From NCBI GenBank assembly GCA_016211945.1, contig JACRHV010000004.1:66649-130648 (forward strand): a stretch of DNA of 64,000 bases. The letters run 5' to 3'. Shown one piece after another: positions 6,844-64,000 of this stretch. Both the position numbers and the translations under genes were made by a program. The notes under the pieces were generated by a model. That model saw only the letters and a list, made by a program, of their open reading frames with translations. It had not been told where the DNA came from and ran no database searches. How positions within the stretch are numbered: the stretch's first letter is position 1; the number at the start of each line of letters is the position of its first letter. This DNA is from Minisyncoccota bacterium (GTDB lineage Bacteria > Patescibacteriota > Microgenomatia > UBA1400 > UBA12028).

Positions 6844-6877
6844 ACCCAAAGTGTAGCATGCTATCATAGTTGGGAGT
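6844..6877. promoter_or_regulatory. short divergent intergenic region presumably holding promoters for the ArnT-like GT-C gene (-) and the UXS-like gene (+)
   Basis: 34 bp between divergent starts; GGGAG lies before the + gene. It is inferred from gene arrangement only. Confidence 0.3.
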
Positions 6878-30381: not shown

Positions 30382-31183
30382 AAACAGCAATTTTCTGTGA
30401 GATATTTTTTCCAATTGAAATCATAATCAAACCAGCGATATAGCGAAAAATGAGATGAATAAAAAGAAACACGTTATTTCCACAATATTTCAAAGCAACA
30501 AAAAATGCTTGATTGTGATGATGTAACGTAAATTTTGCACTTTTTGCCCCAGAGTAATACCGTAGATTAGAAAGTGTATGTGGAATGATCCCCGGTTCAG
30601 TGTACTCGAGAAAACGAAGCCAAAGGTCATAGTCCATAGCAAGATGAAGATCTTTCCGAAGATACCCAACCTTTTTTAGGAGGGCTCGCTTATAAAAACA
30701 TGATGGTTGTCCAATATTGAACGCGTATGAACGAAATAAGAAGGATGAGAAGCGCAAATGCTGGAATGATTTATATAAGTTTTCACCTTCATTTACTACA
30801 TTCCATCCGCCAAATGCCCATAAAACATCTGTGTGGGATCGAAAATATTGCAACACTCGCTTGAGTGCGTATGGCTCAAGAAAATCGTCCGAATTGACAT
30901 ATCCCACAATCTCTGCATTTGCGAGTAGAAAACCTTTATTTAAGGCATCTGACTGTCCATCGTCTTTTTCACAAATGTATACAAAATCAATTCCACTTTT
31001 CTTAAAAAGTGGTTTGTATTTATGAACAAGTGAAGACGTTTCATCTGTCGAAATAGCATCAACTAGAATGTACTGTAAATCTCCAGGTGATAGATGTTGG
31101 TTAAGAATACTTTGAAAAGTCTTCTCTATATACTTCCCTTGGTTAAAACTAGGCGTTATTATCGATATTCTCGTCTTCTTCAT
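30368..31183 (-). CDS. family 2 glycosyltransferase
   Basis: ISIITPSFNQGKYIEKTFQSILNQ...ILVDAISTDET...YVNSDDFLEP. Its 3' end overlaps the convergent GT4 by 14 nt. Confidence 0.8.
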   Translation of the reverse strand: MKKTRISIITPSFNQGKYIEKTFQSILNQHLSPGDLQYILVDAISTDETSSLVHKYKPLFKKSGIDFVYICEKDDGQSDALNKGFLLANAEIVGYVNSDDFLEPYALKRVLQYFRSHTDVLWAFGGWNVVNEGENLYKSFQHLRFSSFLFRSYAFNIGQPSCFYKRALLKKVGYLRKDLHLAMDYDLWLRFLEYTEPGIIPHTLSNLRYYSGAKSAKFTLHHHNQAFFVALKYCGNNVFLFIHLIFRYIAGLIMISIGKNISQKIAVFMKK

Positions 31184-31195
31184 ACCCTTTATTCT

Positions 31196-32965
31196 CTACT
31201 TATATACACAAAGAAACTTTTGATTATCAAGACTTTCGCACAGTAGCGCATCTGCATTGTTGTAGTCTGAACTTATTATCTTGTACTCTGCTTTTTCATA
31301 CGAAGCAACAATTCGCGTTTTGTTCTCAAATCTATCAAGTTCAATCCAAAAAGGATAGATAAATCCACTCTCAATATTAATATAAACCGACTGAGCATGC
31401 TGTTTTTCTAAATACATAGCAATATTTCTGTATGATGTTTTCCATTCTGGATATACTGTGTAATATTGGTCTGCTCTTAATACAGACCAAAAAGGTAAAG
31501 GGACTCGTATGTGATTTTTAGAAAAATAATGTAGTTGATCTTCTACAAAAGAATATGAGATATATGGCTTTAAACTATTGGTAAAAATAAGAATAAAAGC
31601 TAATAGCACAGAGAAAAATGAAATAATTTTAAGCATCCTTTTGTATCGAGATAAAACCAAAATGGCACTTATTGTCATCACTACTAGAATCGGTAGTAAT
31701 AATCTAGAATGCCATGGTTGCCAACGAAAAAGTGCTGAAAATAAAATAAACGAAGAAACACTACATAAATATACTTTTGTTTCTAACTTTTGACGCTCTC
31801 TTCTAAGTAGAGAGGCGCATATTAAAAACCCCGCTACTATGCTGAGTAATATTTGAAAAGGGTTACCAACAAGATCTTCATGTGGAAACAGAATACTTTT
31901 CACCATAAACTCTGTATTTGGCCAAGTAGTTCCAGGGTCATTCATATTTATACCCAATATGGTATGTAAGCCTGCAACAAATGATGTCATTTGTGATGAG
32001 AAAAATGGGATTGGTATTTGAAAAAATAGATTACGAATAACATTTGATAAGACAACATTTATTTCAATTCTACTATTTAAAAATGGCACTTCTATAAATT
32101 CCTCAGATATAGGAAAAAGGGAATGGAAAAGATAAAAACGCTGGAAAAGAAGTGGAGAAACAATAAAGATGCTAATTAAAAGGCAGCCTATTATCTGAAA
32201 AAAATATTCCTTCTTAAGGAAGAAAGTGCTCTTCCATAGTATAAATGGGAGTAAAAATACACCAAGAGAATCTTTACACAGTACGCTCAATGAGCCTGCA
32301 ATTGTAGCGTAACAAAGATATTTCCACTTTAATATTGAGTCTAATTTTAAAAGAAAATATACACTTGTTAAGAAAAGAAAGGTTGAAAGTAAATCTGTTT
32401 GCACTGAATTTGCCTGCAATACAGCCATTGGCATAAGACCAACTATGTAAAGTAATTCTCTTCGTATTGAATCTTTTTGCTCAAATAAGAAGGACCACAT
32501 ATACAGAACTATCAAAAATAAGACATACGAGGAAAATTGCGAAATAAATACAAGTCTATCTGATGTAGTTGTGCCAATAATTACTGCAAAAAGTATCTCT
32601 GGTAATTGTCCCATATAGTCGTGAGAAGTATAGATAGATTGTTGAAACACACTTTTCTCTTGTAACCAATATCTTGCTCTTGGAAGGTGGTATGTCATTC
32701 CATCTGTTGTATTTGCTGAACTCCAAAAACCCTGAATGAAAAGAAGTATCAGTGTTATTGAAAAGAGGATAGAAATGAAAGATTTCATGTGGAGAGAAAA
32801 AATATTCCAAATCTTTTTCCAAAAAAAAGATGCTAAAAAAAATTGAAGTAAAATCAAAGGAAATCTTGAAAAAAGGTGAAAAAGTGATAAGAATATCGAT
32901 CCAATATACGTGAGCAATATCCATTGCAATACAATGATAACGAATTTTTCAAGTTTACTTTGCAT
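31196..32965 (-). CDS. polytopic membrane protein, putative GT-C-like glycosyltransferase or polymerase
   Basis: 589 aa with about 13 helices. Early loop motif ANTTDGMTYHLPRARYW (D-G-x-x-H type). Hydrophilic C-terminal domain. Confidence 0.4.
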   Translation of the reverse strand: MQSKLEKFVIIVLQWILLTYIGSIFLSLFHLFSRFPLILLQFFLASFFWKKIWNIFSLHMKSFISILFSITLILLFIQGFWSSANTTDGMTYHLPRARYWLQEKSVFQQSIYTSHDYMGQLPEILFAVIIGTTTSDRLVFISQFSSYVLFLIVLYMWSFLFEQKDSIRRELLYIVGLMPMAVLQANSVQTDLLSTFLFLTSVYFLLKLDSILKWKYLCYATIAGSLSVLCKDSLGVFLLPFILWKSTFFLKKEYFFQIIGCLLISIFIVSPLLFQRFYLFHSLFPISEEFIEVPFLNSRIEINVVLSNVIRNLFFQIPIPFFSSQMTSFVAGLHTILGINMNDPGTTWPNTEFMVKSILFPHEDLVGNPFQILLSIVAGFLICASLLRRERQKLETKVYLCSVSSFILFSALFRWQPWHSRLLLPILVVMTISAILVLSRYKRMLKIISFFSVLLAFILIFTNSLKPYISYSFVEDQLHYFSKNHIRVPLPFWSVLRADQYYTVYPEWKTSYRNIAMYLEKQHAQSVYINIESGFIYPFWIELDRFENKTRIVASYEKAEYKIISSDYNNADALLCESLDNQKFLCVYK

Positions 32966-34026
32966 TATATTTTCCCATATATTTGTATTAGCTTTTTTCC
33001 CGATGTTACTACTCTTGATTGGATCTTCATTTTATTTGTCTGTACGAGTTTTGTTAATGTCTTACAATCAATTGCAATTAATCCTGTTAATTCAGCTAAT
33101 TTCATACTTATACTATCGTTGTACAACGATCTTTTACCAACTGCAGTCGGTAACCCTGATGCAATCGATTCATACACAGGATATCCATATCCTTCATACA
33201 CGCTTGGAAAAACCGCAGCAGAAGCCTCAAAATATAAAGAAAATAACTCTTCATCTGAAATATTTTTTCTCCAAAAAATGCCAGAGGAAGATTGAACCAA
33301 GTTTTTTACTTTTTCTTCATCTTTTCCATTCTTTCCTATTAATATAAGCGAATATTTCTTTTTCATATCCCATTTGTTGTACAGCTCAATGAGATATGGT
33401 ATCCGTTTATGTGGGTACATAGCACTTACGCATATTATGTAATCCTTTTGACGTATTCCATTCTTGCTATTTTTCATTAACAAGCGAATAAATAATGGTG
33501 AGATCCAAGGTTCAATAATTACAATTTTATTTTTGAATTGAGGAAAATAATGACAAATCCTTTGATAACTAAATGAAGAATCTGTCAAAATAAGATGTGC
33601 TGTATTTATCGAAAAAAATGAAAGAATGCATTGTACAATCCAGGTTGTTTTTGTAAAGTCTTGAGGAAAGTCTAACCAATTTGTATCATGAACCGTAATT
33701 ATTCTTTTTGCTAAAGTGAAAATGGGTCCTATATATCCAAATGAGTGAATAATATTGCACCTATTCCAAACTATGATCAATGGAAAAATAAATTGTTCAT
33801 AAAATATTCTTAAAATTCTATGTGTGGCTAAGATCGGACATAACACTTTTTTAACGTTCTTACTAGTGACCACGAATGAAAAATAATTCTCTTTATTACA
33901 AAAAAGAATATATTGATTTTTCTGATCTATTCTTTCTAATTCTTGAATAAAAAGTCGAGCATAACGCTCTGTGCCACCGACTTGACCAGGCACAAGATAA
34001 AGAAGGTTAATTCCGATACGTTTCAT
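32965..34026 (-). CDS. family 4 glycosyltransferase
   Basis: AAVFPSVYEGYGYPVYESIASGLPTAVGKRSLYND. Start placed at MKRIGINLLYLVPGQVGGTERY. Confidence 0.8.
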   Translation of the reverse strand: MKRIGINLLYLVPGQVGGTERYARLFIQELERIDQKNQYILFCNKENYFSFVVTSKNVKKVLCPILATHRILRIFYEQFIFPLIIVWNRCNIIHSFGYIGPIFTLAKRIITVHDTNWLDFPQDFTKTTWIVQCILSFFSINTAHLILTDSSFSYQRICHYFPQFKNKIVIIEPWISPLFIRLLMKNSKNGIRQKDYIICVSAMYPHKRIPYLIELYNKWDMKKKYSLILIGKNGKDEEKVKNLVQSSSGIFWRKNISDEELFSLYFEASAAVFPSVYEGYGYPVYESIASGLPTAVGKRSLYNDSISMKLAELTGLIAIDCKTLTKLVQTNKMKIQSRVVTSGKKLIQIYGKI

Positions 34027-34967
34027 TGTGCATTCTTGATACCCATATACCACTCTATTGTCTTTTTTAACCCCACATTAAAATCTACTGTAGATTTAAA
34101 ACCAAATTCTCGTTCTGCTAATCGACTATCAATTTTCCTCTTTGGTTGCCCATCTGGTTTTGTATGATCGAATATAATTTCACCTTGAAAATCAACAAGT
34201 TTTGCTATAAGTCGGGCAAGTTCTCCAATACTAATCTCAAGATTTGAACCTAAGTTAACTGGATTTGCTTTATTATATTTTTTTGTAGCTAGAACTATTC
34301 CTTTTGCTGCATCCTCAACATATAAGAATTCACGAGTTGGCGTACCAGTCCCCCATATATCCACCTCAGAAACATTTGTAGATTTTGCGTCACAGAATTT
34401 TTTTATCAAAGCTGGAATTACATGTGAAACTTTGGGATCAAACTTGTCTCCAGGACCATAGAGATTTGTTGGTAATAGAAAAATAGCATTAAATCCATAC
34501 TGCTTTCGATATGCAGCAGATTGAACAAGTAACATTTTTTTCGCCAAACCATATGGTGCATTTGTTTCTTCTGGATATCCATTCCAAATATCTTTTTCTT
34601 TAAATGGTACTGGAGTAAATTTTGGATATGCACAGATTGTACCCAGAGCAACAAATTTCTGCACTCCCGCTTTCCAAGCTTCATGCATAGCATGTACACC
34701 CATCAAAATATTATCGTAAAAGAGCTCCGCAGGATGTTCTTGGTTATATCCAATTCCTCCAACATTTGCCGCAAGATGAATAACAACATCTGTATTTTTA
34801 AAAAGGCGAGCACAAACATCAGGCCTACGCAAATCATAGTCTTTTGATGATGGAATAATAATCTCTTTAACTTCTTCTTTCTTTAACTCTGCAACTAGGT
34901 GCTTTCCTAAAAACCCGTTTCCACCAGTGACTACAATAATCTTATTTTTCAACAAAAGCTCCTTCAT
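34023..34967 (-). CDS. fcl: GDP-L-fucose synthase (GDP-4-keto-6-deoxy-D-mannose 3,5-epimerase/4-reductase)
   Basis: 314 aa. IIVVTGGNGFLGKHL...VIHLAANVGGIGYNQEHPAELFYDNILMG...NAPYGLAKKML...FLLPTNLYGPGDKFDPKVSHVIPALIKKF matches Fcl/WcaG closely. Confidence 0.85.
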   Translation of the reverse strand: MKELLLKNKIIVVTGGNGFLGKHLVAELKKEEVKEIIIPSSKDYDLRRPDVCARLFKNTDVVIHLAANVGGIGYNQEHPAELFYDNILMGVHAMHEAWKAGVQKFVALGTICAYPKFTPVPFKEKDIWNGYPEETNAPYGLAKKMLLVQSAAYRKQYGFNAIFLLPTNLYGPGDKFDPKVSHVIPALIKKFCDAKSTNVSEVDIWGTGTPTREFLYVEDAAKGIVLATKKYNKANPVNLGSNLEISIGELARLIAKLVDFQGEIIFDHTKPDGQPKRKIDSRLAEREFGFKSTVDFNVGLKKTIEWYMGIKNAQ

Positions 34968-35008
34968 AATATGAATTGTATCAAGAATATACGTGGAAGA
35001 ACAGGTTC

Positions 35009-35788
35009 TTATTTTATTATTAAGTACGCACGAACAATAAACTTGGCGTGAAGTTTATGCAATTCTAATAAGATAGGATTTGTTGTGTATCTCTTCAACA
35101 CCATAACCTCTTCTTCAAATTGATTCACAAACTGAGATCTGCCCTTTGATTGTTGATGAATACGAAAAACGGATAAAGCTTCAGGCATGACATATAAAGG
35201 ATATTTTTGTATCAATCTCAACCAAAAATCATAATCCATGCAATAGTGCAGCGACACATCGAATATTCCAATCTCTCTCATCGCACCACGTCGCCAAAAC
35301 GTACTTGGTTGTGCAATGCTATTTGCAATACCTAGAGTAAAGAACGTTGGTACTTTCCGTAACATCTTCTTATACCAACGAACATATTCATGTATTCTTT
35401 TCCCTCGTCCATTTACGATAAAATAATCTCCCGTCACCCACATAGCTTTAGGATTATCTGCAAAAAAAGCCGCAACTTTTTGCAATGTGCCAGGGAGGTA
35501 ATAATCATCTGAGTTCAAATACCCGATAATGTCGCCGTGCGATCGTTCAATTCCTTTATTAATGGCATCGGCTTGTCCCTTGTCCCTCGTACTTTCCCAC
35601 AATACTCTTTTTCCGTATGATCTTAAAATGTTTACAGAACCATCGGTTGATCCGCCGTCCATAACAATATATTCAACTCGTGGGTAATCTTGTTGTACGA
35701 CACTCTCAATTGTTTGTGGGAGAAACGATGCTTGGTTGTAACTTGGTGTGATGATACTAATGGTTGGAGATTTTACGTTTGTTGGCAT
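35009..35788 (-). CDS. family 2 glycosyltransferase
   Basis: ISIITPSYNQASFLPQTIESVVQQDYPRVEYIVMDGGSTDGS...YLNSDDYYLPG. Confidence 0.8.
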   Translation of the reverse strand: MPTNVKSPTISIITPSYNQASFLPQTIESVVQQDYPRVEYIVMDGGSTDGSVNILRSYGKRVLWESTRDKGQADAINKGIERSHGDIIGYLNSDDYYLPGTLQKVAAFFADNPKAMWVTGDYFIVNGRGKRIHEYVRWYKKMLRKVPTFFTLGIANSIAQPSTFWRRGAMREIGIFDVSLHYCMDYDFWLRLIQKYPLYVMPEALSVFRIHQQSKGRSQFVNQFEEEVMVLKRYTTNPILLELHKLHAKFIVRAYLIIK

Positions 35789-36128
35789 ACATCGCTCTTT
35801 CCCTAATCATGTGTTCTAATTTTTTCTCCAGTCGCTTGAAGTACATGCGATTCTGAAAAGTGAAAAAAACAACGATCATCAGTGCAACAATAACGAGTAG
35901 ATCAAATACTCGGGAGATATGCAGTGTCTCTGTTATACCTTGAAATGTCTGTGGAAACAGTGCGGTTAATCCGAATGCTGTCCACAGGCTTATCCAACAC
36001 CAAAACTCAAGGGCATCAAGATGTTGTTTTTTATGATGAATACGAACGACATACATCATAAAGAAGGCAAAAATAACAGAAATTACCTGCAATGGAATCA
36101 TAGCCCCACCCTCCATTGAAAGAGACAT
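35757..36128 (-). CDS. small 3-4 TM membrane protein, DUF2304/GtrA-like partner of a polyprenol-phosphate GT2
   Basis: 123 aa. Hydrophobic segments MIPLQVISVIFAFFMMYVV, FWCWISLWTAFGLTALF, VFDLLVIVALMIVVFF, then a basic tail. It overlaps both neighbours by about 31 nt, so the start may be a later Met. Confidence 0.5.
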   Translation of the reverse strand: MSLSMEGGAMIPLQVISVIFAFFMMYVVRIHHKKQHLDALEFWCWISLWTAFGLTALFPQTFQGITETLHISRVFDLLVIVALMIVVFFTFQNRMYFKRLEKKLEHMIRERAMYANKRKISNH

Positions 36129-36757
36129 CGCGCGATATGCGCCGCATCAATCGCGGTCATTCCCTTTTCTGCATCATGATAAATCGCATCAATCTCGATG
36201 ATCGAGAACGGCATCCTCAACTTCGCCACACGTACTGCAATCTCGGTCTCAACCTCATACCCCGCCGAGTTCCATTGGAGCTTGGCATACGCTTTTTTTG
36301 ACATTGCTTTGTATCCCGACGGAATGTCTGGAATATATCGTCCAAATAATACATTAAGCAATACTGAGGCAAGTCTGTTTCCAAGGAACTTCATCATTGG
36401 TGTTGTCGGGCTGAATTTTCTCACACCAAACACTACTTGATTTCCCTGCTTTAATGCATCAAAGAATTTAGGAAGTTCTGCTACGTCATGCTGATCGTCT
36501 GCATCCATAAAAACTACCGCGTCTGCCTTTATTGTATGAAAAACGTAGTCGCACGCTGTGCGCAACGCCGCCCCCTTGCCAAGGTTCGACTCGTGTACAA
36601 GAACGTGATCTGTATATCGTCGTGCAATCTGCGCAGATTTGTCTCGAGAACCATCGTCAACATAGACAATATTCGAGCTGTATTGTTTCACTTTCTTTAA
36701 TACAGCCCCCAAATACTTCTCTTCGTTGTATCCCGGAATGACAACATAAATGAACAT
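36098..36757 (-). CDS. polyprenol-phosphate glycosyltransferase, GT2 (DPM1/ArnC/GtrB-like)
   Basis: 219 aa. IYVVIPGYNEEKYLGAVLKKV...VYVDDGSRDKSAQIA...NLGKGAALRTA...VFMDADDQHD. Its short length and the adjacent small membrane partner fit lipid-carrier monosaccharide synthases. Confidence 0.7.
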   Translation of the reverse strand: MFIYVVIPGYNEEKYLGAVLKKVKQYSSNIVYVDDGSRDKSAQIARRYTDHVLVHESNLGKGAALRTACDYVFHTIKADAVVFMDADDQHDVAELPKFFDALKQGNQVVFGVRKFSPTTPMMKFLGNRLASVLLNVLFGRYIPDIPSGYKAMSKKAYAKLQWNSAGYEVETEIAVRVAKLRMPFSIIEIDAIYHDAEKGMTAIDAAHIARCLFQWRVGL

Positions 36758-36769
36758 ATCAGCAGTGTA

Positions 36770-37906
36770 TCAAGTTTTTTTTGCATTTGCTATGGAATGC
36801 ATTTTCTCGGAAACCGCACGAATCTGTTCTTCAGTCAGCGCTAGTCCAGATGGAAGATAAAGCCCTCGTTCTGATAAGTCTGTAGAAATTGGGTACATTG
36901 ATTGATCGTATGAAAATCTTCTCACTAAAACAGGCTGGAGATGGAGTGGGTAAAAATATGTACGCGTTTCTACTCCAAGTGCCTGCAGCAAATTCATACA
37001 CTCTGCCCGTTTGATCGGGGCATTTGACTTGAGAAGAATGGTGTACATCCAGAACACGCTTTCTGCATAAGGCATCATTTGGGGAAGCTCAATCCATGGT
37101 ATGTCTGACAATAATTCACGATAGTGTTGTGCCATCCAGATTTTTTTCTCTATACTTTCCTTCACATGGAGAAGACCCGCGCATCCCAATGCAGCCTGCA
37201 TATTCGTCATGCGCATGTTAAAACCCAGTTCCTCATGGTAAAACCGTCTTCCGTGCTTATGTGACAGATTCATAAGAAGTGACGCTTTTTCGTATAAAAC
37301 ATCATCATGCATCAGTATCATTCCACCTTCACCCGTTGTAATAATCTTATTTCCATAAAAACTAAAACACCCAATATCGCCGATGCTACCAACCTTTTTC
37401 CCTTTGTACGTTGCACCATGCGCCTCAGCGGCATCCTCGATTACCCTAAGGTTGTGTTTTCGTGCGATTTTCATGATGGGATCCATATCAGCCGCTTGCC
37501 CGTACAGATGCACTACCATGATCGCCTTTGTTCTTGGTGTGATACATTTTTCGATCTTCAATGGATCAATATTTCCCGTTTTTAAATCAACATCGACAAG
37601 CACCGGCTTTGCACCAACGTAAAGTGCGGCAAACGCGCATGAAATAATGGTAAGGTCGGGTATGATAATCTCATCGCCGGCGCCAATTCCTAGTGTTGCC
37701 AGCGCGAGATGTAATGCTTCTGTCCCATTTGTCACAGAAACGGCGTGTTCTACATCCAAAAACCGAGCGAACTCTTCCTCAAAACGCTTGACATACTTTC
37801 CGGAAGATGAAATCCATCCTGTGTCCAGACAGTCCAACACATACGTCCTCGCCTCGGGATAAATGACTGGCTCGTTTACGCGGATTGTTGGTTGTATATT
37901 CGCCAT
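36770..37906 (-). CDS. DegT-family PLP-dependent aminotransferase, ArnB-like (UDP-4-keto-sugar aminotransferase)
   Basis: 378 aa. ...YVLDCLDTGWISSSGKYVKRFEEEFARFLDVEHAVSVTNGTEALHLALATLGIGAGDEIIIP. Confidence 0.85.
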   Translation of the reverse strand: MANIQPTIRVNEPVIYPEARTYVLDCLDTGWISSSGKYVKRFEEEFARFLDVEHAVSVTNGTEALHLALATLGIGAGDEIIIPDLTIISCAFAALYVGAKPVLVDVDLKTGNIDPLKIEKCITPRTKAIMVVHLYGQAADMDPIMKIARKHNLRVIEDAAEAHGATYKGKKVGSIGDIGCFSFYGNKIITTGEGGMILMHDDVLYEKASLLMNLSHKHGRRFYHEELGFNMRMTNMQAALGCAGLLHVKESIEKKIWMAQHYRELLSDIPWIELPQMMPYAESVFWMYTILLKSNAPIKRAECMNLLQALGVETRTYFYPLHLQPVLVRRFSYDQSMYPISTDLSERGLYLPSGLALTEEQIRAVSEKMHSIANAKKT

Positions 37907-37910
37907 ACGC

Positions 37911-38354
37911 CTATTGTACTTGAACCTTTACGTTCGTCGTTCCATGATACGGACCTTGTTTTACCTCAATAACGCGCGCATCCTCGATGATCTCAATTCC
38001 ATGCGCCATACCAACCTGCAAGACGGTGTCACCCTCAAAAAGATCAACAGAATCAATCTTTTTTCCATCCAGAGTGTAGTACGTTATTCTTATCTTGCCT
38101 TTTACAATATACAGCACTTCTTGAATCGCAGTGATTGTCCTCGGATCGCCGGAATGAAGGTGTGGGAAAAGCACTACTCCTGCTTTTTTTTCATGGAATC
38201 CGAGCTGGAGCGGCTGCTCCTCGCTTCCAACAAACTCAACATTATCGACGGGGTGATCTTTTCGCACAATAACAGCGACAAGAGTCCCACCATATGTAAT
38301 AGAAAAACGTGTTTCTTGTAAAGACAGTGCGCTCATTATGCTTTCATAATCCAC
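37911..38354 (-). CDS. cupin-fold protein, WxcM/FdtA-like sugar-nucleotide 3,4-ketoisomerase or epimerase-like
   Basis: 147 aa. ...QLGFHEKKAGVVLFPHLHSGDPRTITAIQEVLYIVKGKIRI... fits a cupin beta-barrel with His residues. The start may be the internal Met at 38336. Confidence 0.45.
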   Translation of the reverse strand: MDYESIMSALSLQETRFSITYGGTLVAVIVRKDHPVDNVEFVGSEEQPLQLGFHEKKAGVVLFPHLHSGDPRTITAIQEVLYIVKGKIRITYYTLDGKKIDSVDLFEGDTVLQVGMAHGIEIIEDARVIEVKQGPYHGTTNVKVQVQ

Positions 38355-39235
38355 TGAATAGTTTTGTGGAGTCCCTCTTCCAACTCAACCTGCGGTTCCC
38401 AGCCCAACACTTTCTTTGCTTTTGACGCGTCTGCGAAAAGTTCACTCGGATCACCAGGTCGTGCATCAAAATGCGTAACTTTTGCAGGTTTTCCAATGAG
38501 TTTTTCAAGTATTTGAATAATTTCGAGTACCGATGTTGCATTCTTTCCAGATAAATTCATGTAGTGATATCCTTGGGGAAGAGAAAGGGCGAGAAGATGG
38601 GCACGAACGACATCTTCAACGTACACATAATCCCTTTTATTGCTCCCATCGCCCCATACCGTTACCTCGTCACTGTGCATAATTTGACGCGCGAAACGTG
38701 GAATTGCATGTGTTTCAGGCTCGTGATCTTCCTCCGGTCCATACAAATTAAAATACCGCAACGCAACTCCTGTAAATCCAAATGCGTATGCGTACGAAGA
38801 GACAAGTCCTTCCATTGCAAGTTTTGTCATGCCATACGGATTAATTGGCAATGTTCGATCATTTTCTTGAATGGGAGTACGAAGCGGTTCGCCATAGATA
38901 GCAGCACTACTTGAAAATAAGAACTTCTTTACCTCATGTTTTCGCATCGATTCCAGTACAACAAGGGTTCCGAGTATATTATTTTCCGTGTACTTTCTTG
39001 GCTGCTCCACAGACTCTCCAGCTTCTATGTAGCTCGCAAGGTGAAATACTGCATCATGTCCAGGCATGGTCTGATCCACAAGCATCTCGTCCATAACATC
39101 ACCCACAACCGTCTGAACTCCTTGCAATGTACAAGGTTTTTTGTCGATGTTTGTGACGATATGTCTTGCTGCCACTAATGCCCTGCAAAGATGCTTCCCA
39201 AGAAACCCAGAGCCACCGGTAACAAGAATCTTCAT
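38336..39235 (-). CDS. NAD-dependent nucleotide-sugar epimerase/dehydratase (GalE/WcaG-like SDR)
   Basis: MKILVTGGSGFLGKHLCRAL...FHLAS...YGMTKLAMEG...RYFNLYGP. Confidence 0.8.
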   Translation of the reverse strand: MKILVTGGSGFLGKHLCRALVAARHIVTNIDKKPCTLQGVQTVVGDVMDEMLVDQTMPGHDAVFHLASYIEAGESVEQPRKYTENNILGTLVVLESMRKHEVKKFLFSSSAAIYGEPLRTPIQENDRTLPINPYGMTKLAMEGLVSSYAYAFGFTGVALRYFNLYGPEEDHEPETHAIPRFARQIMHSDEVTVWGDGSNKRDYVYVEDVVRAHLLALSLPQGYHYMNLSGKNATSVLEIIQILEKLIGKPAKVTHFDARPGDPSELFADASKAKKVLGWEPQVELEEGLHKTIQWIMKA

Positions 39236-39278
39236 ATACCGCGTAGTATATCTGTTTCACCATTGAAAAAGAAGAGAT

Positions 39279-40481
39279 CTATGCAACCCAAAGACCTTGG
39301 ACAAAGAGCATTGTATTGATGATGAGGAATATGAGTTGGACGACACACAAGAAATAAAAAAATCTTCTATTGTTGTGATACATACGTTCCATGAGAAAAA
39401 ATAGGGGAAAGATAATCATGATATACCGAGGCATACTTTGGAGTGTCCCCGTAAGCGTGGGGAGAATATATGCACCCCAAGAATAGATGAGGTAGGAGAG
39501 ACGAACCATACCTTTTTTGACCGTTGCGATTGCTAACACAATCCCAACACTACTGGTAAAAACCAGTTCTTGAAGATAGGCATAGTACGACCAAGACCAA
39601 ATCGGCCATCCATTCTCTCCAAGGATAAAAAAGGACAAAAAGATTCGCATATACCTATAAAGCACTTGTAGCAACGGCACAAAAGACTCCTGCCGACCGC
39701 CACCAAACTCTGCCTGTACATGCAAGAAGTATAGTGGATCATGAAACTTCCACGCCAAAAATGCCATGTAGAGGAAAAGCCCGCCTAATCCAATGCACAC
39801 GACACCAATAAGACGAAAGAACCTTGATGTGTGTGTTTTCTTTGTAGATCGAAACTCTTGATACATCTCAACCAAGAGTGCAAGTACGAGGAAAACTCCT
39901 GTAATTCGTGTTGCTGTCGCAAAAAAAGAGCACAAGATTGCGACATCCCATCGGCGCAAACGGATAGCGTAGAACGAAGAAAATACCAAAAAAAGAAACA
40001 ATGATTCTGTGTACATTGCCCCGAAGAAAAAGGATGTTGGAAAGATCAGTAGTGAAAGGCAGAGTGCAAAAAAAGAAGACTTCTTGCGTTCAGTCCCTAA
40101 CAACTTTCCGGCAAAAACAAGCATGAGATATGTAAAAATATGCGAGACCAAAAGACCGGAATACACAACATTATGAAAAAGATTAAACAATTGCGTCATT
40201 GCCGGGTACAAAGGAAAAAAAGCCTGAATAAGTCCAGTACCAATATATCCTTTCGTCGCGATCGTGATGTAATGTACGCCATCAAATCCTGCCCATCGTA
40301 CGAGCCACCACGGACCCCTGTTCGCCAACATTGATTCGTAATAGGGGTAACTTGGGGAAAAAGGAATAAGTTTGTCCGCGAACAATGTAGACACAACAAG
40401 AAGCACTCTCCACACGATCAACATGAGTGCCGCGGTGAACCAAATGTTTGATATCACTTTCTTAACGAAGAATTTGTTCAT
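39279..40481 (-). CDS. polytopic membrane mannosyltransferase-like GT-C protein (PIG-V/DUF2029-like)
   Basis: 400 aa with about 10 helices. Motif WAGFDGVHYITIATKGY resembles the conserved W-D-x-x-H-Y...IA..GY loop of PIG-V/GT-C mannosyltransferases. Confidence 0.5.
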   Translation of the reverse strand: MNKFFVKKVISNIWFTAALMLIVWRVLLVVSTLFADKLIPFSPSYPYYESMLANRGPWWLVRWAGFDGVHYITIATKGYIGTGLIQAFFPLYPAMTQLFNLFHNVVYSGLLVSHIFTYLMLVFAGKLLGTERKKSSFFALCLSLLIFPTSFFFGAMYTESLFLFLVFSSFYAIRLRRWDVAILCSFFATATRITGVFLVLALLVEMYQEFRSTKKTHTSRFFRLIGVVCIGLGGLFLYMAFLAWKFHDPLYFLHVQAEFGGGRQESFVPLLQVLYRYMRIFLSFFILGENGWPIWSWSYYAYLQELVFTSSVGIVLAIATVKKGMVRLSYLIYSWGAYILPTLTGTLQSMPRYIMIIFPLFFLMERMYHNNRRFFYFLCVVQLIFLIINTMLFVQGLWVA

Positions 40482-42081
40482 ACCGTTTCCATTGTACTGC
40501 GATAAAACCTACGAGAATAAAGGCGAAAAGCGTGATGCTGTTTCCAACAATACGCGCTGGTGTGTATTGTGTAAATCGCGTGGAAATATTGTGTGTACCA
40601 GCAGAAACATAAAATGACAGTAATCCCTCGGTGTCTTTGTACGTGTATGGAACTTTCTTCCCGTCAACCCTCGTTTCCCAACCTGCAAAATATGCCGTTG
40701 GTTCTGTAATGCGTTGATCTCTGTCAAGTTTTACGGTATAGACATGCTCTGATCCATTCCACATTTTTCTCTCAAGGATCTCGCCTTGCTGTATATGCGG
40801 TTGCTGATCGCTCAACATTCCCGATTGATACGTTAATGTTCTTGGACGATTTTCGTCTACAGTTGTTGATGTTTCCGCGAATGTTTTGTAGTACAGATCG
40901 TCGTGATGAATATACGAATCAATTTTTCTTTGAGATACTCGAATAAGTGAGAAAAGAAGACAAAGAAGAAGCAATGTTCGAGATATTTTTCCCACGTGTG
41001 CATATGTGTACGCGACAAGCATTGACGACACTATTGTCAATGGCCCCAGTAATCTCCATGGAAACTGGATGTACTGCATAAATGGAATAGCGGACCAGAG
41101 TGGCATACTTATGGGCAACATGAATAAAAGAAGGAACACCGTTCCAACAATTAATGCAATATATTCTTTTTTTCTTTTTGCATAGATGCAATACCAAATG
41201 GAAAGTACAAGCGAACAAAAAGATATTATTCCTAACGAAAAAGATAGGGTATCTACCGGTCCCGGAAAGGAGAATCCCCATTGCCACGGGGAGGAAAGAA
41301 CTTGGCTAAAAGTGGGAGCATGTTCTGCGTATGCTCGAGAAAGGTTGACCTGATCTAAGGTAACGAGTGATTTTTCAACTAGTGCTGGAATCCAAAAAAA
41401 TGAAGAGGCCGCCAATCCAGCCAAAATAGGAAAATAAAGGCCGTATTTCTTTGTGTGCAATACGTGTGAATATATGGAAATAAGAACACACGGAATGATG
41501 AGCATTGCAATGATGTTGTGGGCAAGTGCGAGAAACAACACTCCGAAAAAAAGAACGAAAAACATTCCTTTTGACTGTCTTTTCTTCCATTTGTGCATCG
41601 CATAGAAAATCCATGGCACTATAGCATACGCAAGTACTTCACCTACTGCCCCGCGAACATACAGGTTTGTAAAGACAAAAGGGGCAAGAAGATAACTTGC
41701 AACGCCAACGCCAGCTGAGATTGATGACACATGGTGCCTGAACCAAACATAGAGACCAATGACAGAGCTCACTATGGCAGTACTGAGTAAAATCTTCATC
41801 GTCCACTCAACTGAAAGTCCTATCGCCAAGAATGGCAGTGCGAGAATATTTGCCAAAGGATAATTATAGTTAAACACAGGATAACCGTATCCTGCCCAAA
41901 AGGTTGGAGCCCACCGTGGCGGAAACTGACCTTGTTTTACAGCCACAGCGTAGTTTGCGATACGCGCAAGATGGTTCACCCCATCATGTGTTTCCGGAAA
42001 ACCCGCGTTAAAGAGAAGTGGACGAAGCAATATAATCAAGAGAGATACTCCACCAAAAACCAGTACCATACGGCGCATCAT
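40462..42081 (-). CDS. polytopic membrane protein, putative GT-C-like glycosyltransferase
   Basis: About 540 aa with many helices. Early loop FPETHDGVNHLARIANYAVAV (D-G-x-x-H motif). Start placed at MMRRMVLVFGG, abutting the stop of the upstream GT4. Confidence 0.4.
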   Translation of the reverse strand: MMRRMVLVFGGVSLLIILLRPLLFNAGFPETHDGVNHLARIANYAVAVKQGQFPPRWAPTFWAGYGYPVFNYNYPLANILALPFLAIGLSVEWTMKILLSTAIVSSVIGLYVWFRHHVSSISAGVGVASYLLAPFVFTNLYVRGAVGEVLAYAIVPWIFYAMHKWKKRQSKGMFFVLFFGVLFLALAHNIIAMLIIPCVLISIYSHVLHTKKYGLYFPILAGLAASSFFWIPALVEKSLVTLDQVNLSRAYAEHAPTFSQVLSSPWQWGFSFPGPVDTLSFSLGIISFCSLVLSIWYCIYAKRKKEYIALIVGTVFLLLFMLPISMPLWSAIPFMQYIQFPWRLLGPLTIVSSMLVAYTYAHVGKISRTLLLLCLLFSLIRVSQRKIDSYIHHDDLYYKTFAETSTTVDENRPRTLTYQSGMLSDQQPHIQQGEILERKMWNGSEHVYTVKLDRDQRITEPTAYFAGWETRVDGKKVPYTYKDTEGLLSFYVSAGTHNISTRFTQYTPARIVGNSITLFAFILVGFIAVQWKRYEQILR

Positions 42082-43133
42082 CTCTCCACCACTTTCTCGT
42101 ATATTTTCGCTGTCTTTTCTGCTGTTTTTTCCCACCGGAAATGGTCAGCGTGTTTTTCCAACACTTTTCTGCCTATCATCGACTGTTTTCTTGATAACAC
42201 GTTTATCATTGCTCTCGCCATATCTTCACTGTCGTAGGGATTGCAATACTCCACAATAGTGCCTCCTATTTCCGGCAACGAAGAGGTGTTTGATGAAACA
42301 ACAGGGACCCCACATTGCAACGCGTCCAGAACCGAGAGGCCGAAGCCTTCATATAATGAAGGCTGTATGTACAGCGATGCCTGTGTGAAAATTGCCGCGA
42401 GGTCAGCTATAGGATCTTTTGGTACTTCTGTTAACAGGAGTACGCGCGAATCAACCTTGTTTTTCTGTATTGCTTCTTGGAGCGCAGCGCCTTCTGGAAT
42501 ATCAATGTTTTTTAGCGATCGACCCACCATCACAAGCGAATATTCATCCGGTAATTTTGAAAACGCTTCGATACATCGTGGGAGGTTTTTGTTGTAGTTG
42601 ATATCTCCAACATAGAGCACATACTTTTGCGGAAGTTTGTATTGAAGTGCAACTCGACGTACAACCTCCGAAGCTTGTCTTCTCATCCCTGGGTTACCAG
42701 CAAGGTACACAACATGAATTTTCTCTTTGGGCATCCCCAAGTACTTCATGATATCTTTCTTTGAACATTCGGAGTCTGTGATGATTGCTGATACTGTACG
42801 CAAACTCATAAGTTGAAGAAAAAATCGAATCATTCCTTTCACTCCAGGTTTATATCTCTGTGGGAAAATCAAAGGGATGACATCATGAATTGTCACAACA
42901 GTTTTCGCTTCTTTATGTAGGGGGAGTGTGTGAAAAAAAAGATCAAAATAAGGGTAGTGAACAACATCTATCTTGTGTTTCCTCCCACCCGCATACAGAT
43001 GGACCTGCATGCCAGATATTTTCTTGAGATGTTGAACGAGAAAATCTGTGTAAATCCCAACCCCGCGAAAGGCGTTAGCTTTGTGGAGATGTGAGATATC
43101 AATGCGTATATTCACAAGCCTATTGTAACGCAA
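42078..43133 (-). CDS. family 4 glycosyltransferase
   Basis: IQPSLYEGFGLSVLDALQCGVPVVSSNTSSLPEIGGTIVEYCNP. Confidence 0.8.
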   Translation of the reverse strand: MRYNRLVNIRIDISHLHKANAFRGVGIYTDFLVQHLKKISGMQVHLYAGGRKHKIDVVHYPYFDLFFHTLPLHKEAKTVVTIHDVIPLIFPQRYKPGVKGMIRFFLQLMSLRTVSAIITDSECSKKDIMKYLGMPKEKIHVVYLAGNPGMRRQASEVVRRVALQYKLPQKYVLYVGDINYNKNLPRCIEAFSKLPDEYSLVMVGRSLKNIDIPEGAALQEAIQKNKVDSRVLLLTEVPKDPIADLAAIFTQASLYIQPSLYEGFGLSVLDALQCGVPVVSSNTSSLPEIGGTIVEYCNPYDSEDMARAMINVLSRKQSMIGRKVLEKHADHFRWEKTAEKTAKIYEKVVER

Positions 43134-43824
43134 ACTTGATAATCAAGAGAAGATGGCGAAATCCATCACGAAATGTGTTGAGCTTCGAGTAAGACTTGTT
43201 GTGTCGTTGACCGTACGAGATCGGAACCTCGGTCATCTTCAATTTTTCTTGACTTGCGCGCATAAGCATCTCGGATGCAAACTCCATACCATAAGACTTG
43301 AGCTGGAGTTTTTCATACGCTGTTCTGCTCAACAACCGCATTCCACAATGTCCATCCCAAATATGCGTCCAAAAAAAGAGATTGAGAATGAGTGTGAGGA
43401 CAGGAACTCCGATATATCGATGAATGAAGGGCATTGCCAATGGATCAATATTTCCTTTTAATCTATTTCCACTTACTAAGTCATATCCTTCAATGAATTT
43501 TGCATAGAGGAGTGGAATCTCGCGAAAATCATAGGTATCATCGGAATCTCCCATCACGAGAATATCTCCCTTTGCTTTCTCAAAACCCTTCATAAGAGCA
43601 GCTCCATAACCGCGCTGTTTTACCTCGACGATACGTGCTCCCGCTTTCTTTGCTATCTCGACCGAATGATCGCGCGAACCATTATCAGCAATCACAACTT
43701 CACCGGAAAGGCCCGTTTTCTTTATACCTTCAAATGCTTTCTGTATGGAAGCTTGAAGCGTTTCCTCTTCATTAAGACATGGAAGAACGACCGAGATACT
43801 ATGCGCTTTGGTATTTCTTTGCAT
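43120..43824 (-). CDS. polyprenol-phosphate glycosyltransferase, GT2 (DPM1/ArnC-like)
   Basis: ISVVLPCLNEEETLQASIQKAF...VVIADNGSRDHSVEIA...GYGAALMKGF...LVMGDSDDTYD. Start chosen at MQRNTKAHS; the ORF-track start at 43893 is probably an extension. Confidence 0.65.
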   Translation of the reverse strand: MQRNTKAHSISVVLPCLNEEETLQASIQKAFEGIKKTGLSGEVVIADNGSRDHSVEIAKKAGARIVEVKQRGYGAALMKGFEKAKGDILVMGDSDDTYDFREIPLLYAKFIEGYDLVSGNRLKGNIDPLAMPFIHRYIGVPVLTLILNLFFWTHIWDGHCGMRLLSRTAYEKLQLKSYGMEFASEMLMRASQEKLKMTEVPISYGQRHNKSYSKLNTFRDGFRHLLLIIKFALQ

Positions 43825-63978: not shown

Positions 63979-64000
63979 TAGATCTTCTCCACAAATGAAG

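Follow-up and report, generated by a model that had tools for sequence, protein, structure and literature searches.

Known systems for lipid-linked sugar donors

Glycosyltransferases of the GT-C fold depend on lipid-linked donors (review PMC8035078), and two systems that supply such donors with the help of a DUF2304 protein are among the closest described relatives of the locus analyzed here. GacI, GacJ, GacK and GacL attach GlcNAc side chains to the group A carbohydrate of Streptococcus pyogenes and form a type 'b' multi-component transmembrane glycosylation system. PpgS (Rv3631), Rv3632, GalE1 (Rv3634c) and Rv3779 of Mycobacterium tuberculosis, like the ppgS cluster of Corynebacterium glutamicum, serve the GalN decoration of arabinogalactan. 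GacJ and Rv3632 are DUF2304 proteins which stimulate GacI and PpgS (bioRxiv 10.1101/180810). GacJ co-purifies with GacI and the apparent Km for Und-P falls from 18.7 to 1.1 uM, PpgS is likewise stimulated by Rv3632, and GacI-GacJ fusions occur naturally (10.1101/180810; PMC9671496; review PMC8035078). GacI and PpgS are both of the DUF2304 partners studied so far, and the product is polyprenyl-P-HexNAc in each case (10.1101/180810; PMC9671496).

Organization of the locus

The locus lies in a Candidatus Pacebacteria (Patescibacteria) MAG, in a glycan cluster of at least 84 kb which extends beyond the window, i.e., the whole 64,000-nt stretch of DNA analyzed. The preliminary description had placed an aminotransferase, a GT2 and a small membrane protein here, and all three ORFs were recovered at the positions given there as tightly packed minus-strand genes with strong profile support for each (Table 1). 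The gap between cupin and aminotransferase genes is 4 nt and that between aminotransferase and GT2 genes 12 nt, while the GT2 and DUF2304 genes overlap by 4 nt. A cupin gene and then a GalE-like SDR gene, both missing from the preliminary description, are found upstream of the aminotransferase gene.

Table 1. Genes at the locus, with positions in the window.
Feature	Position	Strand	Basis
GT2_219, GT-A glycosyltransferase, Dpm1/GtrB/ArnC class, 219 aa	36098..36757	-	PF00535, fold match
DUF2304 small membrane protein, 114 aa	35757..36101 (ORF to 36128, 123 aa)	-	PF10066
AT378, PLP-dependent sugar aminotransferase, GDP-perosamine-synthase-like, 378 aa	36770..37906	-	DegT_DnrJ_EryC1, PDB identity
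Cupin, WbuC-like, 141 aa	37911..38336 (GTG ORF to 38354, 147 aa)	-	NCBIfam WbuC, sub-cut-off
GalE299, GalE-type NAD-dependent 4-epimerase	38336..39235	-	NCBIfam GalE, PDB
MEM400, GT-C-fold membrane glycosyltransferase, PIG-V/Gpi18-like	39279..40481	-	homologue families, AF2 fold
GTC557, multi-pass membrane protein, PTPS_related	40462..42135	-	PF10131
GT2_259, soluble GT2	35009..35788	-	PF00535
Fcl314, GDP-L-fucose-synthase-like 3,5-epimerase/4-reductase	34023..34967	-	NCBIfam, PDB

A GT2 and DUF2304 pair

GT2_219 matches Glycos_transf_2 (PF00535) with an E of 3e-24 in the profile search, and the DDGS and DADDQH motifs are invariant in its family. Among the NCBIfam models it scores 101 bits for AglJ, 84.5 for PpgS, 70 for a Dol-P-hexose transferase and 41.4 for ArnC, all below the cut-offs (370 bits for PpgS and 529 for ArnC). 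The PpgS model covers the protein almost end to end (E 7e-24); as the score is far under the cut-off, GT2_219 is not a PpgS ortholog. The closest PDB sequence is Pyrococcus DPMS, of which residues 25-245 of 374 align with residues 3-210. Because the alignment stops there, the C-terminal membrane domain of DPMS has no counterpart in GT2_219, and no hydrophobic segment or transmembrane helix was found in the protein. The AF2 model (pLDDT 90.8) has ArnC (TMq 0.79), GtrB and DPMS as top folds, and the best 12 matches are all polyprenyl-phosphate glycosyltransferases. However, fold alone is no proof of a lipid acceptor since soluble GpgS enzymes rank close behind; the soluble GT-A enzymes GpgS and WrtF fit the model with TMq 0.72-0.78. 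The earlier assignment to the polyprenol-P type agrees with these fold matches and with the order of the NCBIfam scores, and we predict that GT2_219 is a polyprenyl-phosphate sugar synthase similar to GacI and PpgS.

The small membrane protein matches DUF2304 (PF10066) with 60.8 bits (gathering score 25.5), and the profile search returned no GtrA, EamA or SMR match. Thus, of the three identities proposed for it earlier (ArnE/F, DUF2304 or GtrA), only DUF2304 stands. It was also described as a 123-aa protein with 3-4 transmembrane segments. It is indeed a membrane protein, but most likely one of 114 aa starting at the ATG at 36101, which an independent gene caller also picked. Three of its segments are hydrophobic (residues 1-19, about 31-49, and 62-80), and its C-terminal tail is basic (10 K/R vs 3 D/E). 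The ATG at 36101 shares the sequence ATGA with the stop codon of GT2_219. By analogy with GacJ and Rv3632, the protein is predicted to be the partner of GT2_219.

The synteny counts come from 54 related species, with denominators that differ by gene and distance. DUF2304 immediately follows the GT2_219-family gene in 43 of the 52 species loci; 3 more have it within 800 nt, and the loci of the closest GT2_219 homologues also have it directly downstream. Other neighbors recur less often: the GalE299 ortholog immediately 5' (16/51 loci), the MEM400 family up to 1.1 kb upstream (14/49), a GTC557 homologue within 10 kb (14/36), the GT2_259 type up to 1.1 kb downstream (29/50) and the Fcl314 type up to 3 kb downstream (25/45). 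The locus contains a conserved module of Microgenomates-group Patescibacteria with the order GT-C, GT-C, GalE-like, GT2, DUF2304, GT2 and Fcl-like. Since the GalE-like flank and the Fcl-like flank each occur in no more than about one third to one half of related loci, synteny does not settle the donor sugar.

GalE299 scores 226 bits against NCBIfam GalE (cut-off 262), its closest PDB entries are UDP-glucose 4-epimerases, and its motif is SSSAAIYG, in contrast to T-D-E or S-S-E in 4,6-dehydratases. The position of its orthologs directly upstream of the GT2 parallels GalE1 (Rv3634c, Cgp_0391) in the PpgS system (PMC9671496). The homologues of MEM400 are named 'Gpi18-like mannosyltransferase'; PF04188 matches 7 of 23 family members and others match PMT_2, ALG10 or GT87. 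An FDGxHY loop motif is invariant in this family, and the AF2 model (pLDDT 86.9) has GT-C folds for all of its top 26 PDB matches (TM 0.33-0.49), which makes MEM400 a candidate user of a lipid-linked sugar. GTC557 has at least 8 hydrophobic segments and matches PTPS_related (PF10131), a family which belongs to the GT-C clan, with 44.6 bits (gathering score 26.4). That the window contains many GT-C enzymes, as proposed earlier, is borne out by PMT_2, PMT and PTPS_related matches and by MEM400, with GT-C enzymes directly upstream of this locus. On the other side, the GT2_259 gene overlaps the DUF2304 gene by 32 nt. GT2_259 matches PF00535 with an E of 7e-31 and TuaG with 81.6 bits, and its closest PDB match is the glycosyltransferase chain 9omh/9omj, of which 9omh is labelled WrtF fucosyltransferase. 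Fcl314 scores 286.6 bits for NCBIfam GDP-L-fucose synthase (cut-off 500), and its PDB matches above 120 bits are GDP-L-fucose synthases only, up to 203 bits.

Taken together, the core of the locus is probably a synthase of two proteins that loads a sugar onto a lipid carrier, as GacI/GacJ and PpgS/Rv3632 do, next to a cupin-aminotransferase pair that forms a separate unit of the GDP-perosamine-synthase type. The catalytic part would be GT2_219, a GT-A domain of the Dpm1/GtrB/ArnC class that lacks the C-terminal membrane helices of those enzymes, and the membrane part would be added in trans by the translationally coupled DUF2304 protein with its hydrophobic segments and basic tail. This protein may, by analogy, form a complex with GT2_219 and increase the affinity of GT2_219 for polyprenyl phosphate. 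The pair would then load a single sugar, taken from a nucleotide sugar, onto polyprenyl phosphate at the cytoplasmic face, and after a flip a GT-C enzyme of the cluster (MEM400, GTC557 or another) would pass it on to a glycan or protein at the surface. Our leading guess for the cargo is a 4-epimerised UDP-hexose or UDP-HexNAc.

The aminotransferase and the lipid-linked cargo

AT378 matches DegT_DnrJ_EryC1 with an E of 3e-121 and is 48% identical over 357 residues to the Caulobacter perosamine synthetase 3bn1. GDP-perosamine synthase is the best solved relative with 338 bits, compared with 162 for ArnB, and the NCBIfam scores are 341.5 bits for the LegC family (cut-off 420) and 197.5 for ArnB (cut-off 631). 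The homologues carry the JGI name 'perosamine synthetase', GMD (GDP-mannose 4,6-dehydratase) is encoded in 14 of 80 loci of the clade, and the Lys of FSFYGNK and the Asp of EDAAEA are invariant in it. The ArnB identity proposed earlier was therefore rejected on the family score, the closer match to perosamine synthase and the link to GMD, and these results also place the enzyme elsewhere than in a UDP-pentose clade.

The start ATG of the cupin gene shares one base with the stop codon of the GalE-like gene. The cupin scores 33.2 bits for NCBIfam WbuC (cut-off 42), it has no Pfam family at E<=0.01 (a looser cut-off gives a weak Cupin_3 match, E 0.08) and no convincing PDB match, and H65, H67, E79, H118 and a KQGPY motif are invariant in its family. 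It precedes the aminotransferase in 36 of 66 AT378-clade loci and is thus the usual partner of this clade. Cupin and aminotransferase would work as one unit on a GDP-4-keto-6-deoxyhexose.

The preliminary description regarded the three genes as an amino-sugar donor module. In a corrected form based on a GDP-hexose and not on Ara4N, cupin and aminotransferase would make a GDP-linked amino-dideoxyhexose of the perosamine type, which GT2_219 and DUF2304 would attach to polyprenyl phosphate for use by the GT-C enzymes in this lineage. The short gaps and the overlap from cupin through DUF2304 are consistent with this. In addition, a different Dpm1/ArnC-like GT2 (243 aa, no transmembrane helix), often with GNAT and with GT-C genes nearby, directly follows the aminotransferase in 15 of 56 AT378-clade loci; the pairing of this type of aminotransferase with a lipid-carrier synthase is thus genuine in other genomes. 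As the window holds no ortholog of the 243-aa GT2, GT2_219 takes its position here. There are also precedents in Und-P-Ara4FN made via ArnC, in polyprenyl-P-GalNAc made via PpgS (PMC9671496) and in the FucNAc side branch of Xanthomonas wxc region 3, which depends on wxcK and on wxcN, a gene for a small membrane protein (PMC4878081).

However, more than 50 species have a GT2_219 ortholog (42-66% identity), whereas none of the 51 species loci counted has an aminotransferase ortholog directly upstream of it and 2 of 36 have one within 10 kb. None was found near the two closest GT2_219 homologues. Those relatives that do have the cupin-aminotransferase pair (L002/L029, L036 and L059) carry it 3-5 kb further downstream, behind Fcl or Fcl-GT4, and a GT2_219-type gene is present in just 3 of 80 AT378-clade loci. 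Furthermore, in contrast to the 243-aa GT2/GNAT cassette, no N-acyltransferase is encoded beside AT378, and no 4,6-dehydratase including GMD was found in the approximately 84 kb around the locus. The aminotransferase is thus no conserved partner of the GT2 and DUF2304 genes, and the amino-sugar donor claim comes down to adjacency in a single lineage. An amino sugar as lipid-linked cargo is unlikely here on synteny, and we give the corrected reading a low probability; the preliminary interpretation is partly supported. Under the two-unit reading, the cupin-aminotransferase pair, which lies between epimerase and GT2_219 in this lineage, most likely makes the amino-deoxy sugar used by one of the cluster's many soluble glycosyltransferases and not the cargo of the lipid carrier.

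Other explanations for the GT2

It is less probable still that GT2_219 is an ordinary peripheral GT2 that lengthens a glycan on an Und-PP-linked or protein acceptor, with DUF2304 as a mere membrane tether or in an unrelated role, and that no polyprenyl-monophosphate sugar is made. The sub-cut-off equivalog scores and the fit of the soluble GT-A enzymes to the model would allow this, and the cluster is rich in conventional GT2 and GT4 enzymes, with a Bac_transf initiating enzyme encoded just beyond the window. Against it stand the twelve top fold matches, the polyprenyl-P-HexNAc products of both studied DUF2304 partners, and the fact that the pair is kept beside GT-C enzymes, whose donors must be lipid-linked.

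An ArnB-ArnC-ArnE/F-type pathway from UDP-glucuronate to undecaprenyl-phosphate-4-amino-arabinose, as first proposed, can be set aside as highly improbable: the aminotransferase-GT2 order as in arnB-arnC, the superposition of GT2_219 on ArnC, the PMT_2-type GT-C enzymes (ArnT belongs to this family) and a UDP-glucuronate decarboxylase homologue at 6878..7846 speak for it, but neither AT378 nor GT2_219 reaches the Arn family models, GT2_219 has no hydrophobic segment whereas ArnC is membrane-embedded, the small protein belongs to DUF2304 and lacks any SMR/EamA-type match, formyltransferase (ArnA) and deformylase (ArnD) domains are absent from all ORFs scanned, and the decarboxylase, which had been called UXS/ArnA-like, does exist but resembles human UXS1 (291 bits) and not ArnA (85 bits), lies 29 kb from the three genes on the other strand, and belongs to a type that reduces its 4-keto intermediate and does not release it.

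Comparison with known systems

The Arn system (ArnB-ArnC-ArnA-ArnD-ArnT-ArnE/F), which makes Und-P-Ara4N for lipid A modification, shares with this locus the general route from nucleotide sugar to polyprenyl-P-sugar to GT-C enzyme, the aminotransferase-GT2 gene order and the ArnC catalytic domain as best structural match. It differs in that aminotransferase, GT2 and small membrane protein each fail the Arn models, the formyltransferase and deformylase are lacking, the decarboxylase is of the UXS type, and the aminotransferase groups with GDP-6-deoxyhexose enzymes.

AT378 resembles GDP-perosamine synthase (Per/RfbE; Caulobacter crescentus 3BN1) over its full length, with the PLP lysine motif kept and a clade linked to GMD, and the cluster also has a ManC-like gene just beyond the window. 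The AT378 clade is usually preceded by a cupin, which per loci are not known to have. No GMD was found in or near the window, and AT378 would aminate its substrate at C4 or C3.

The PpgS system is similar in its short GT2 with a DUF2304 stimulator, its GalE-type 4-epimerase, its GT-C transferase and an additional glycosyltransferase in the cluster (cf. Cgp_0396). GT2_219 is, however, outside the PpgS orthologs, and its cargo may differ from GalNAc. The mycobacterial system has no sugar aminotransferase and obtains the amino group by GalNAc deacetylation, whereas an aminotransferase is present here.

The Gac system is similar as well. GT2_219 would correspond to GacI as a cytoplasmic GT-A GT2 without membrane helices, and the DUF2304 protein to GacJ (~113 aa, three transmembrane helices, gene immediately 3' of the GT2). 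Both clusters encode a GT-C enzyme, and a polyprenyl-monophosphate sugar for use outside the membrane is expected from each. Differences are the phylum (Patescibacteria) and the flipping step: there is no adjacent Wzx-type flippase like GacK and no GtrA-type flippase, and the only Wzx-like gene of the window lies 8 kb off on the opposite strand. Moreover, the GT-C partners are PIG-V-like and PTPS_related and not of the GacL type, and the flanks are GalE-like, Fcl-like and a second GT2, with cupin and aminotransferase added in this lineage.

The GT2 enzyme and its small membrane partner

The GT2 glycosyltransferase GT2_219 and the small membrane protein encoded next downstream form, by analogy with the GacI/GacJ and PpgS/Rv3632 systems, a predicted polyprenyl-phosphate-sugar synthase, which is of a known kind but lies in a phylum where it had no earlier description. 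The preliminary description had placed both genes, together with the adjoining aminotransferase AT378, in a lipid-linked amino-sugar donor module resembling the 4-amino-arabinose (Ara4N) pathway, which provides polymyxin resistance. All three ORFs were confirmed on the minus strand with Pfam support. The Ara4N analogy is attractive but wrong, as none of the three proteins passes the models of the Arn families, and neither a formyltransferase (ArnA) nor a polysaccharide-deacetylase domain (ArnD deformylase) was found in the ORFs scanned.

The closest solved sequence relative of GT2_219 is the Pyrococcus Dol-P-Man synthase (DPMS). Since residues 3-210 align to residues 25-245 of the 374 in DPMS, the match stops where the membrane domain of DPMS starts, and GT2_219 has no hydrophobic segment; its C-terminal end carries an amphipathic helix (residues 202-216). 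The AlphaFold model (pLDDT 90.8) has Salmonella ArnC as its top fold match (TMq 0.79), followed by GtrB and DPMS, with the soluble GpgS enzymes ranking close behind. The DDGS and DADDQH motifs are kept across the family. The top NCBIfam scores, for AglJ (101 bits), PpgS (84.5 bits) and Dol-P-hexose transferase (70 bits), are all far under the cut-offs; for the PpgS equivalog (NF058614) the cut-off is 370 bits, and profile positions 2-198 of 226 are covered. The proposed likeness to ArnC therefore holds for the catalytic fold and not for family membership, where the ArnC equivalog NF007986 gives 41.4 vs. 529 bits. GT2_219 is a GT-A GT2 of the Dpm1/GtrB/ArnC class without membrane helices of its own.

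For the small protein, the most likely start codon is the ATG at 36101, also picked by an independent gene caller, giving 114 aa. This ATG overlaps the GT2_219 stop codon by 4 nt (ATGA). The encoded protein combines three hydrophobic segments with a basic tail, and its Pfam matches at E<=0.01 are limited to DUF2304, CcmD_alt and DUF3611, with no GtrA or SMR/EamA-type match. Of the families that had been proposed for the small membrane partner, DUF2304 is thus retained, and ArnE/F and GtrA are not.

GacJ and Rv3632 both belong to DUF2304, Rv3632 stimulates PpgS, and GacI-GacJ fusions occur naturally (bioRxiv 10.1101/180810; PMC9671496). GacI is a GT2 without TM segments that co-purifies with GacJ, and its apparent Km for undecaprenyl phosphate is lowered by GacJ from 18.7 to 1.1 uM (bioRxiv 10.1101/180810). 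Candidates for the cargo sugar of the GT2_219/DUF2304 pair are a 4-epimerised UDP-hexose or UDP-HexNAc, based on the GalE-like neighbour and the analogy with PpgS and GacI, a GDP-6-deoxyhexose, based on the Fcl-like neighbour, and the product of AT378.

Features of the locus and of the surrounding glycan cluster
Feature	Position	Strand	Remarks
575-aa ORF	5368..7095	-	no Pfam hit
UXS1-type UDP-glucuronate decarboxylase	6878..7846	+	291 bits UXS1 vs. 85 bits ArnA
SDR	18876..19844		ASSSSVYG, epimerase-type motif
AsnB-like amidotransferase	19857..21701
WbpB/WbpD/WbpE-like trio	22508..25066	-	adjacent genes
Wzx/MOP-like gene	26605..28002	opposite to GT2/DUF2304 pair	8 kb from pair
Third DegT-family protein	27995..29164	+	best model RfbH, 188 bits, below cut-off
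Small membrane protein, DUF2304 (PF10066)	35757..36128 (ORF)	-	60.8 bits, gathering score 25.5 (Pfam)
GT2_219	36098..36757	-	219 aa; Glycos_transf_2, E 3e-24 (Pfam)
AT378 aminotransferase	36770..37906	-	378 aa; DegT_DnrJ_EryC1, E 3e-121 (Pfam)
Cupin	37911..38354 (ORF)	-
MEM400	39279..40481	-	GT-C superfamily; no own Pfam hit
257-aa GT2	43120..43893	-	AglJ model, 123 bits
239-aa GT2	63259..63978	-	AglJ model, 128 bits

Conserved neighbourhood in the Microgenomates group

Close homologues of GT2_219 (42-66% identity) were found only in Patescibacteria of the Microgenomates group. To count their neighbours, the window proteins were run by tblastn against 54 species-representative loci; the denominators vary by neighbour.

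Neighbours of GT2_219 homologues in species-representative loci
Neighbour	Position relative to GT2_219 homologue	Loci
DUF2304	directly downstream	43/52; 3 more within 800 nt
259-aa-type GT2	within 1.1 kb downstream	29/50
Fcl-like SDR	within 3 kb downstream	25/45
GalE299 (GalE-type epimerase) ortholog, >= 50% identity	directly upstream	16/51
MEM400 (GT-C-fold membrane protein)	within 1.1 kb upstream	14/49
AT378 ortholog	directly upstream	0/51
AT378 ortholog	anywhere within 10 kb	2/36

These counts separate the aminotransferase from the GT2/DUF2304 module to which the preliminary description had assigned it, and no neighbouring aminotransferase is found at the loci of the two closest GT2_219 homologues (66% identity). 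At L002/L029, L036 and L059, loci of relatives, the cupin and aminotransferase pair is present 3-5 kb downstream, after Fcl or Fcl-GT4. Together with the neighbour counts, this position gives the usual order as GT-C / GT-C / GalE-like / GT2 / DUF2304 / GT2 / Fcl-like. The window differs in that the cupin and aminotransferase genes lie between the epimerase and GT2_219. A compositionally foreign origin of the pair was rejected, as its GC of 0.44 and GC3 of 0.41-0.43 match the upstream genes and GT2_219; composition thus gives no sign of recent import.

Many module-bearing GTDB records (L008, L010, L011, L013-L019 and others) have 'uncultured Pseudomonadales bacterium' or 'uncultured Gammaproteobacteria bacterium' as their title. 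Judging from the gene content of these records and from 50-60% identity to proteins of Woesebacteria and Pacebacteria, such titles are probably placeholders and do not reflect the true taxonomy.

The module of a predicted GacI/GacJ-type synthase with flanking GT-C enzymes is conserved across more than 50 species of the Microgenomates group, and suggests that glycosylation outside the cytoplasm is a regular trait of their envelope. How Patescibacteria (CPR) construct their cell surface is, to our knowledge, poorly understood, and the literature searched held nothing joining Patescibacteria with GT-C glycosyltransferases.

The aminotransferase and its sugar supply

AT378 resembles GDP-perosamine synthases and not, as had been proposed, ArnB. 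The closest solved relative is the Caulobacter GDP-perosamine synthase 3bn1 (338 bits, 48% identity over 357 residues, E 4e-100), whereas ArnB structures reach 162 bits and the score on the ArnB model (NF008658) is 197.5 bits, with the cut-off at 631. The PseC model gives 257.5 bits (cut-off 423.5). Membership of the LegC family (TIGR04181) was rejected, as its score of 341.5 bits is under the cut-off of 420. The FSFYGNK lysine, i.e., the PLP lysine, is invariant in the AT378 clade. AT378 is closely similar in sequence to a characterised Per over its full length, with this lysine in place, and 'perosamine synthetase' is the name given to its homologues by JGI.

The synteny of the AT378 clade was analyzed in 80 metagenome loci, with subsets of 66 for the cupin and 56 with enough downstream sequence. 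GDP-mannose 4,6-dehydratase (GMD) is present in 14 of the 80 loci; one example scores above the gmd cut-off (516.6 bits) and two, at 392 and 395, are just under 415. This places the clade, by its predicted substrate, on GDP-4-keto-6-deoxymannose and not on UDP-pentose as in the Ara4N reading. The decarboxylase that had been called UXS/ArnA-like is of the UXS1 type and not ArnA-like, and is on the opposite strand at a distance of 29 kb. A search of the window and of 10 kb on each side of it (about 84 kb) gave neither GMD nor any other 4,6-dehydratase; a ManC-like gene of the same cluster is located just outside the window. The epimerase GalE299 was rejected as the missing 4,6-dehydratase, as its SSSAAIYG is like GalE and differs from the Ser/Thr-x-Glu motif of dehydratases.

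The cupin is the usual partner of the aminotransferase, being encoded upstream of it in 36 of the 66 loci. No Pfam family fits it at E<=0.01, and PDB gave no convincing match; a family profile compared with PDB sequences and Pfam gave marginal generic cupin matches only, and the score on the WbuC model (NCBIfam) is 33 bits, below the cut-off of 42. The family alignment has invariant H65, H67, E79 and H118 and a KQGPY motif. We speculate that the cupin might be a GDP-4-keto-6-deoxymannose isomerase or epimerase.

Outside the window, a recurrent cassette combines a cupin (about 136 aa), a perosamine-synthase-like aminotransferase, a GT2 (about 243 aa) and often a GNAT protein (about 192 aa), with GT-C genes nearby (L060:6001-8420, L061:5594-8410, L062-L064, L067, L069, L073, L075, L081, L083, L087, L089, L091, L101, L107, L110, L113, L123). 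The 243-aa GT2 is Dpm1/ArnC-like without TM segments and directly follows the aminotransferase in 15 of 56 AT378-clade metagenome loci. Its NCBIfam scores are 75 bits for Dol-P-hexose transferase, 72 for ArnC and 72 for PgfS, and it shares only 22% identity with GT2_219. The cassette resembles a pathway that would provide polyprenyl-P-(N-acetyl)perosamine as a donor on a lipid carrier. We know of no description of such a pathway, or of a lipid-monophosphate carrier for a perosamine-type sugar, and the repeated coupling of a perosamine-type aminotransferase clade to a Dpm1-like GT2 and GNAT may outrank the window itself in interest.

These cassettes independently follow the logic of an alternative reading of the window, in which the GacI/GacJ-type pair has been recruited in this Pacebacteria lineage to carry the product of the cupin and AT378. 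The resulting donor for the GT-C enzymes would be a polyprenyl-phosphate-linked 4-amino-4,6-dideoxyhexose (or the 3-amino isomer), and GT2_219 holds the position equivalent to the 243-aa GT2, an ortholog of which is absent from the window. However, a GT2_219-type gene is found in only 3 of the 80 AT378-clade loci, and the GT2_219 family is overwhelmingly without an aminotransferase. We regard such a recruitment as unlikely.

GT-C enzymes and the large glycan cluster

MEM400 can be placed in the GT-C superfamily on the basis of its relatives, fold and motif. Its homologues carry the name Gpi18-like mannosyltransferases, and Pfam matches PIG-V in 7 of 23 family members and PMT_2, ALG10 or GT87 in others. 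The top 26 PDB matches of the model (pLDDT 86.9) all have the GT-C fold, with modest TM scores of 0.33-0.49, and include OST/AglB, ALG12, ALG9, Pmt4, EmbC, PglB, PimE and PIG-U. The invariant FDGxHY loop motif is also kept. The adjacent GTC557 is a PTPS_related membrane protein (Pfam), and profile scans found at least eight GT-C-like membrane proteins in the window, with six PMT_2/PMT proteins besides these two. As GT-C enzymes require lipid-linked donors, which is established for the superfamily (summarised in PMC8035078), a lipid-carrier synthase beside MEM400 and GTC557 is functionally sensible. On this reading, the earlier interpretation of a lipid-carrier synthase feeding GT-C enzymes is partly right.

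According to ORF profile scans, the whole window is a single large glycan cluster with three DegT aminotransferases, many GT2 and GT4 genes, an ABC-2 exporter and a Wzx-like gene. It extends at least 10 kb past both ends (L145:10890-20945 before position 1, L144:1-9999 beyond position 64000). One flank has Wzy_C-like, PMT_2 and several GT4/GT2 genes, a ManC-like GDP-mannose pyrophosphorylase and a Bac_transf initiating transferase, and on the opposite flank a MurJ/Polysacc_synt flippase-like gene accompanies further GT-C-like proteins. Between about 59.4 and 30.4 kb, every gene points the same way, with tiny gaps or overlaps. A consensus scan of 30000..43500 gave no intergenic promoter or terminator; promoter-like sites were fewer than in shuffles and each one intragenic. 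Therefore, a sub-operon boundary could not be placed, and adjacency within the array is weak evidence of a functional sub-unit. The tRNA and Rfam scans of the whole window gave no matches and hence no taxonomic anchor; two proteins with 100% identity to window proteins (P0121 and P0241) assign the window to a Candidatus Pacebacteria MAG.

The composition steps at about 35-36 kb, from a GC3 of 0.38-0.46 in the 36-43 kb genes to 0.22-0.34 in the 26.6-35 kb genes (Fcl-like, GT4, 589-aa membrane protein, GT2, GT4, DegT aminotransferase and Wzx-like). In the 2-kb profile, GC is low from about 18 to 35 kb, a stretch that could be an imported or variable section of the cluster.

Two more Dpm1/AglJ/PpgS-like GT2s, of 257 and 239 aa, are encoded in the window. 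Neither has a DUF2304 partner beside it, the 239-aa enzyme has no hydrophobic segment and the 257-aa enzyme a borderline single one, and mutual identity among these two and GT2_219 is 27-30%. The cluster may thus make several different lipid-linked sugars. Adjacent genes for a GFO/IDH/MocA oxidoreductase (151 bits on the archaeal UDP-GlcNAc 3-dehydrogenase model), an LbH acetyltransferase and a DegT aminotransferase are a WbpB/WbpD/WbpE-like trio for a 3-acetamido sugar, with the AsnB-like amidotransferase nearby. The third DegT-family protein, for which the best model is a CDP-4-keto-6-deoxyglucose 3-dehydrase, might not be an aminotransferase but a dehydrase. The 575-aa ORF is divergent from the UXS gene and overlaps it by 218 nt; its GTG start is probably too far upstream, as the gene caller gives 499 aa for this membrane protein.

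Comparison with known systems

What is left of the likeness to the Arn pathway is the logic of nucleotide sugar to polyprenyl-P-sugar to GT-C enzyme, and an ArnC-like catalytic fold. ArnC is a GT2 with C-terminal membrane helices, and GT2_219 resembles it in the catalytic domain only. Similarly, GtrB of the GtrA/GtrB systems has two C-terminal membrane helices where GT2_219 has none, and the small protein has no GtrA match in Pfam. The type 'b' multi-component transmembrane glycosylation system pairs a cytoplasmic GT-A enzyme with a separate membrane protein and adds a flippase and a GT-C enzyme (PMC8035078). As for the flippase, the Wzx/MOP-like gene of the window lies 8 kb from the pair on the opposite strand, and no GtrA match was found in the other window ORFs scanned. 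The features shared with the GacI/GacJ and PpgS/Rv3632 systems are a GT-A GT2 without TM segments, an adjoining DUF2304 gene and a GT-C enzyme in the cluster.
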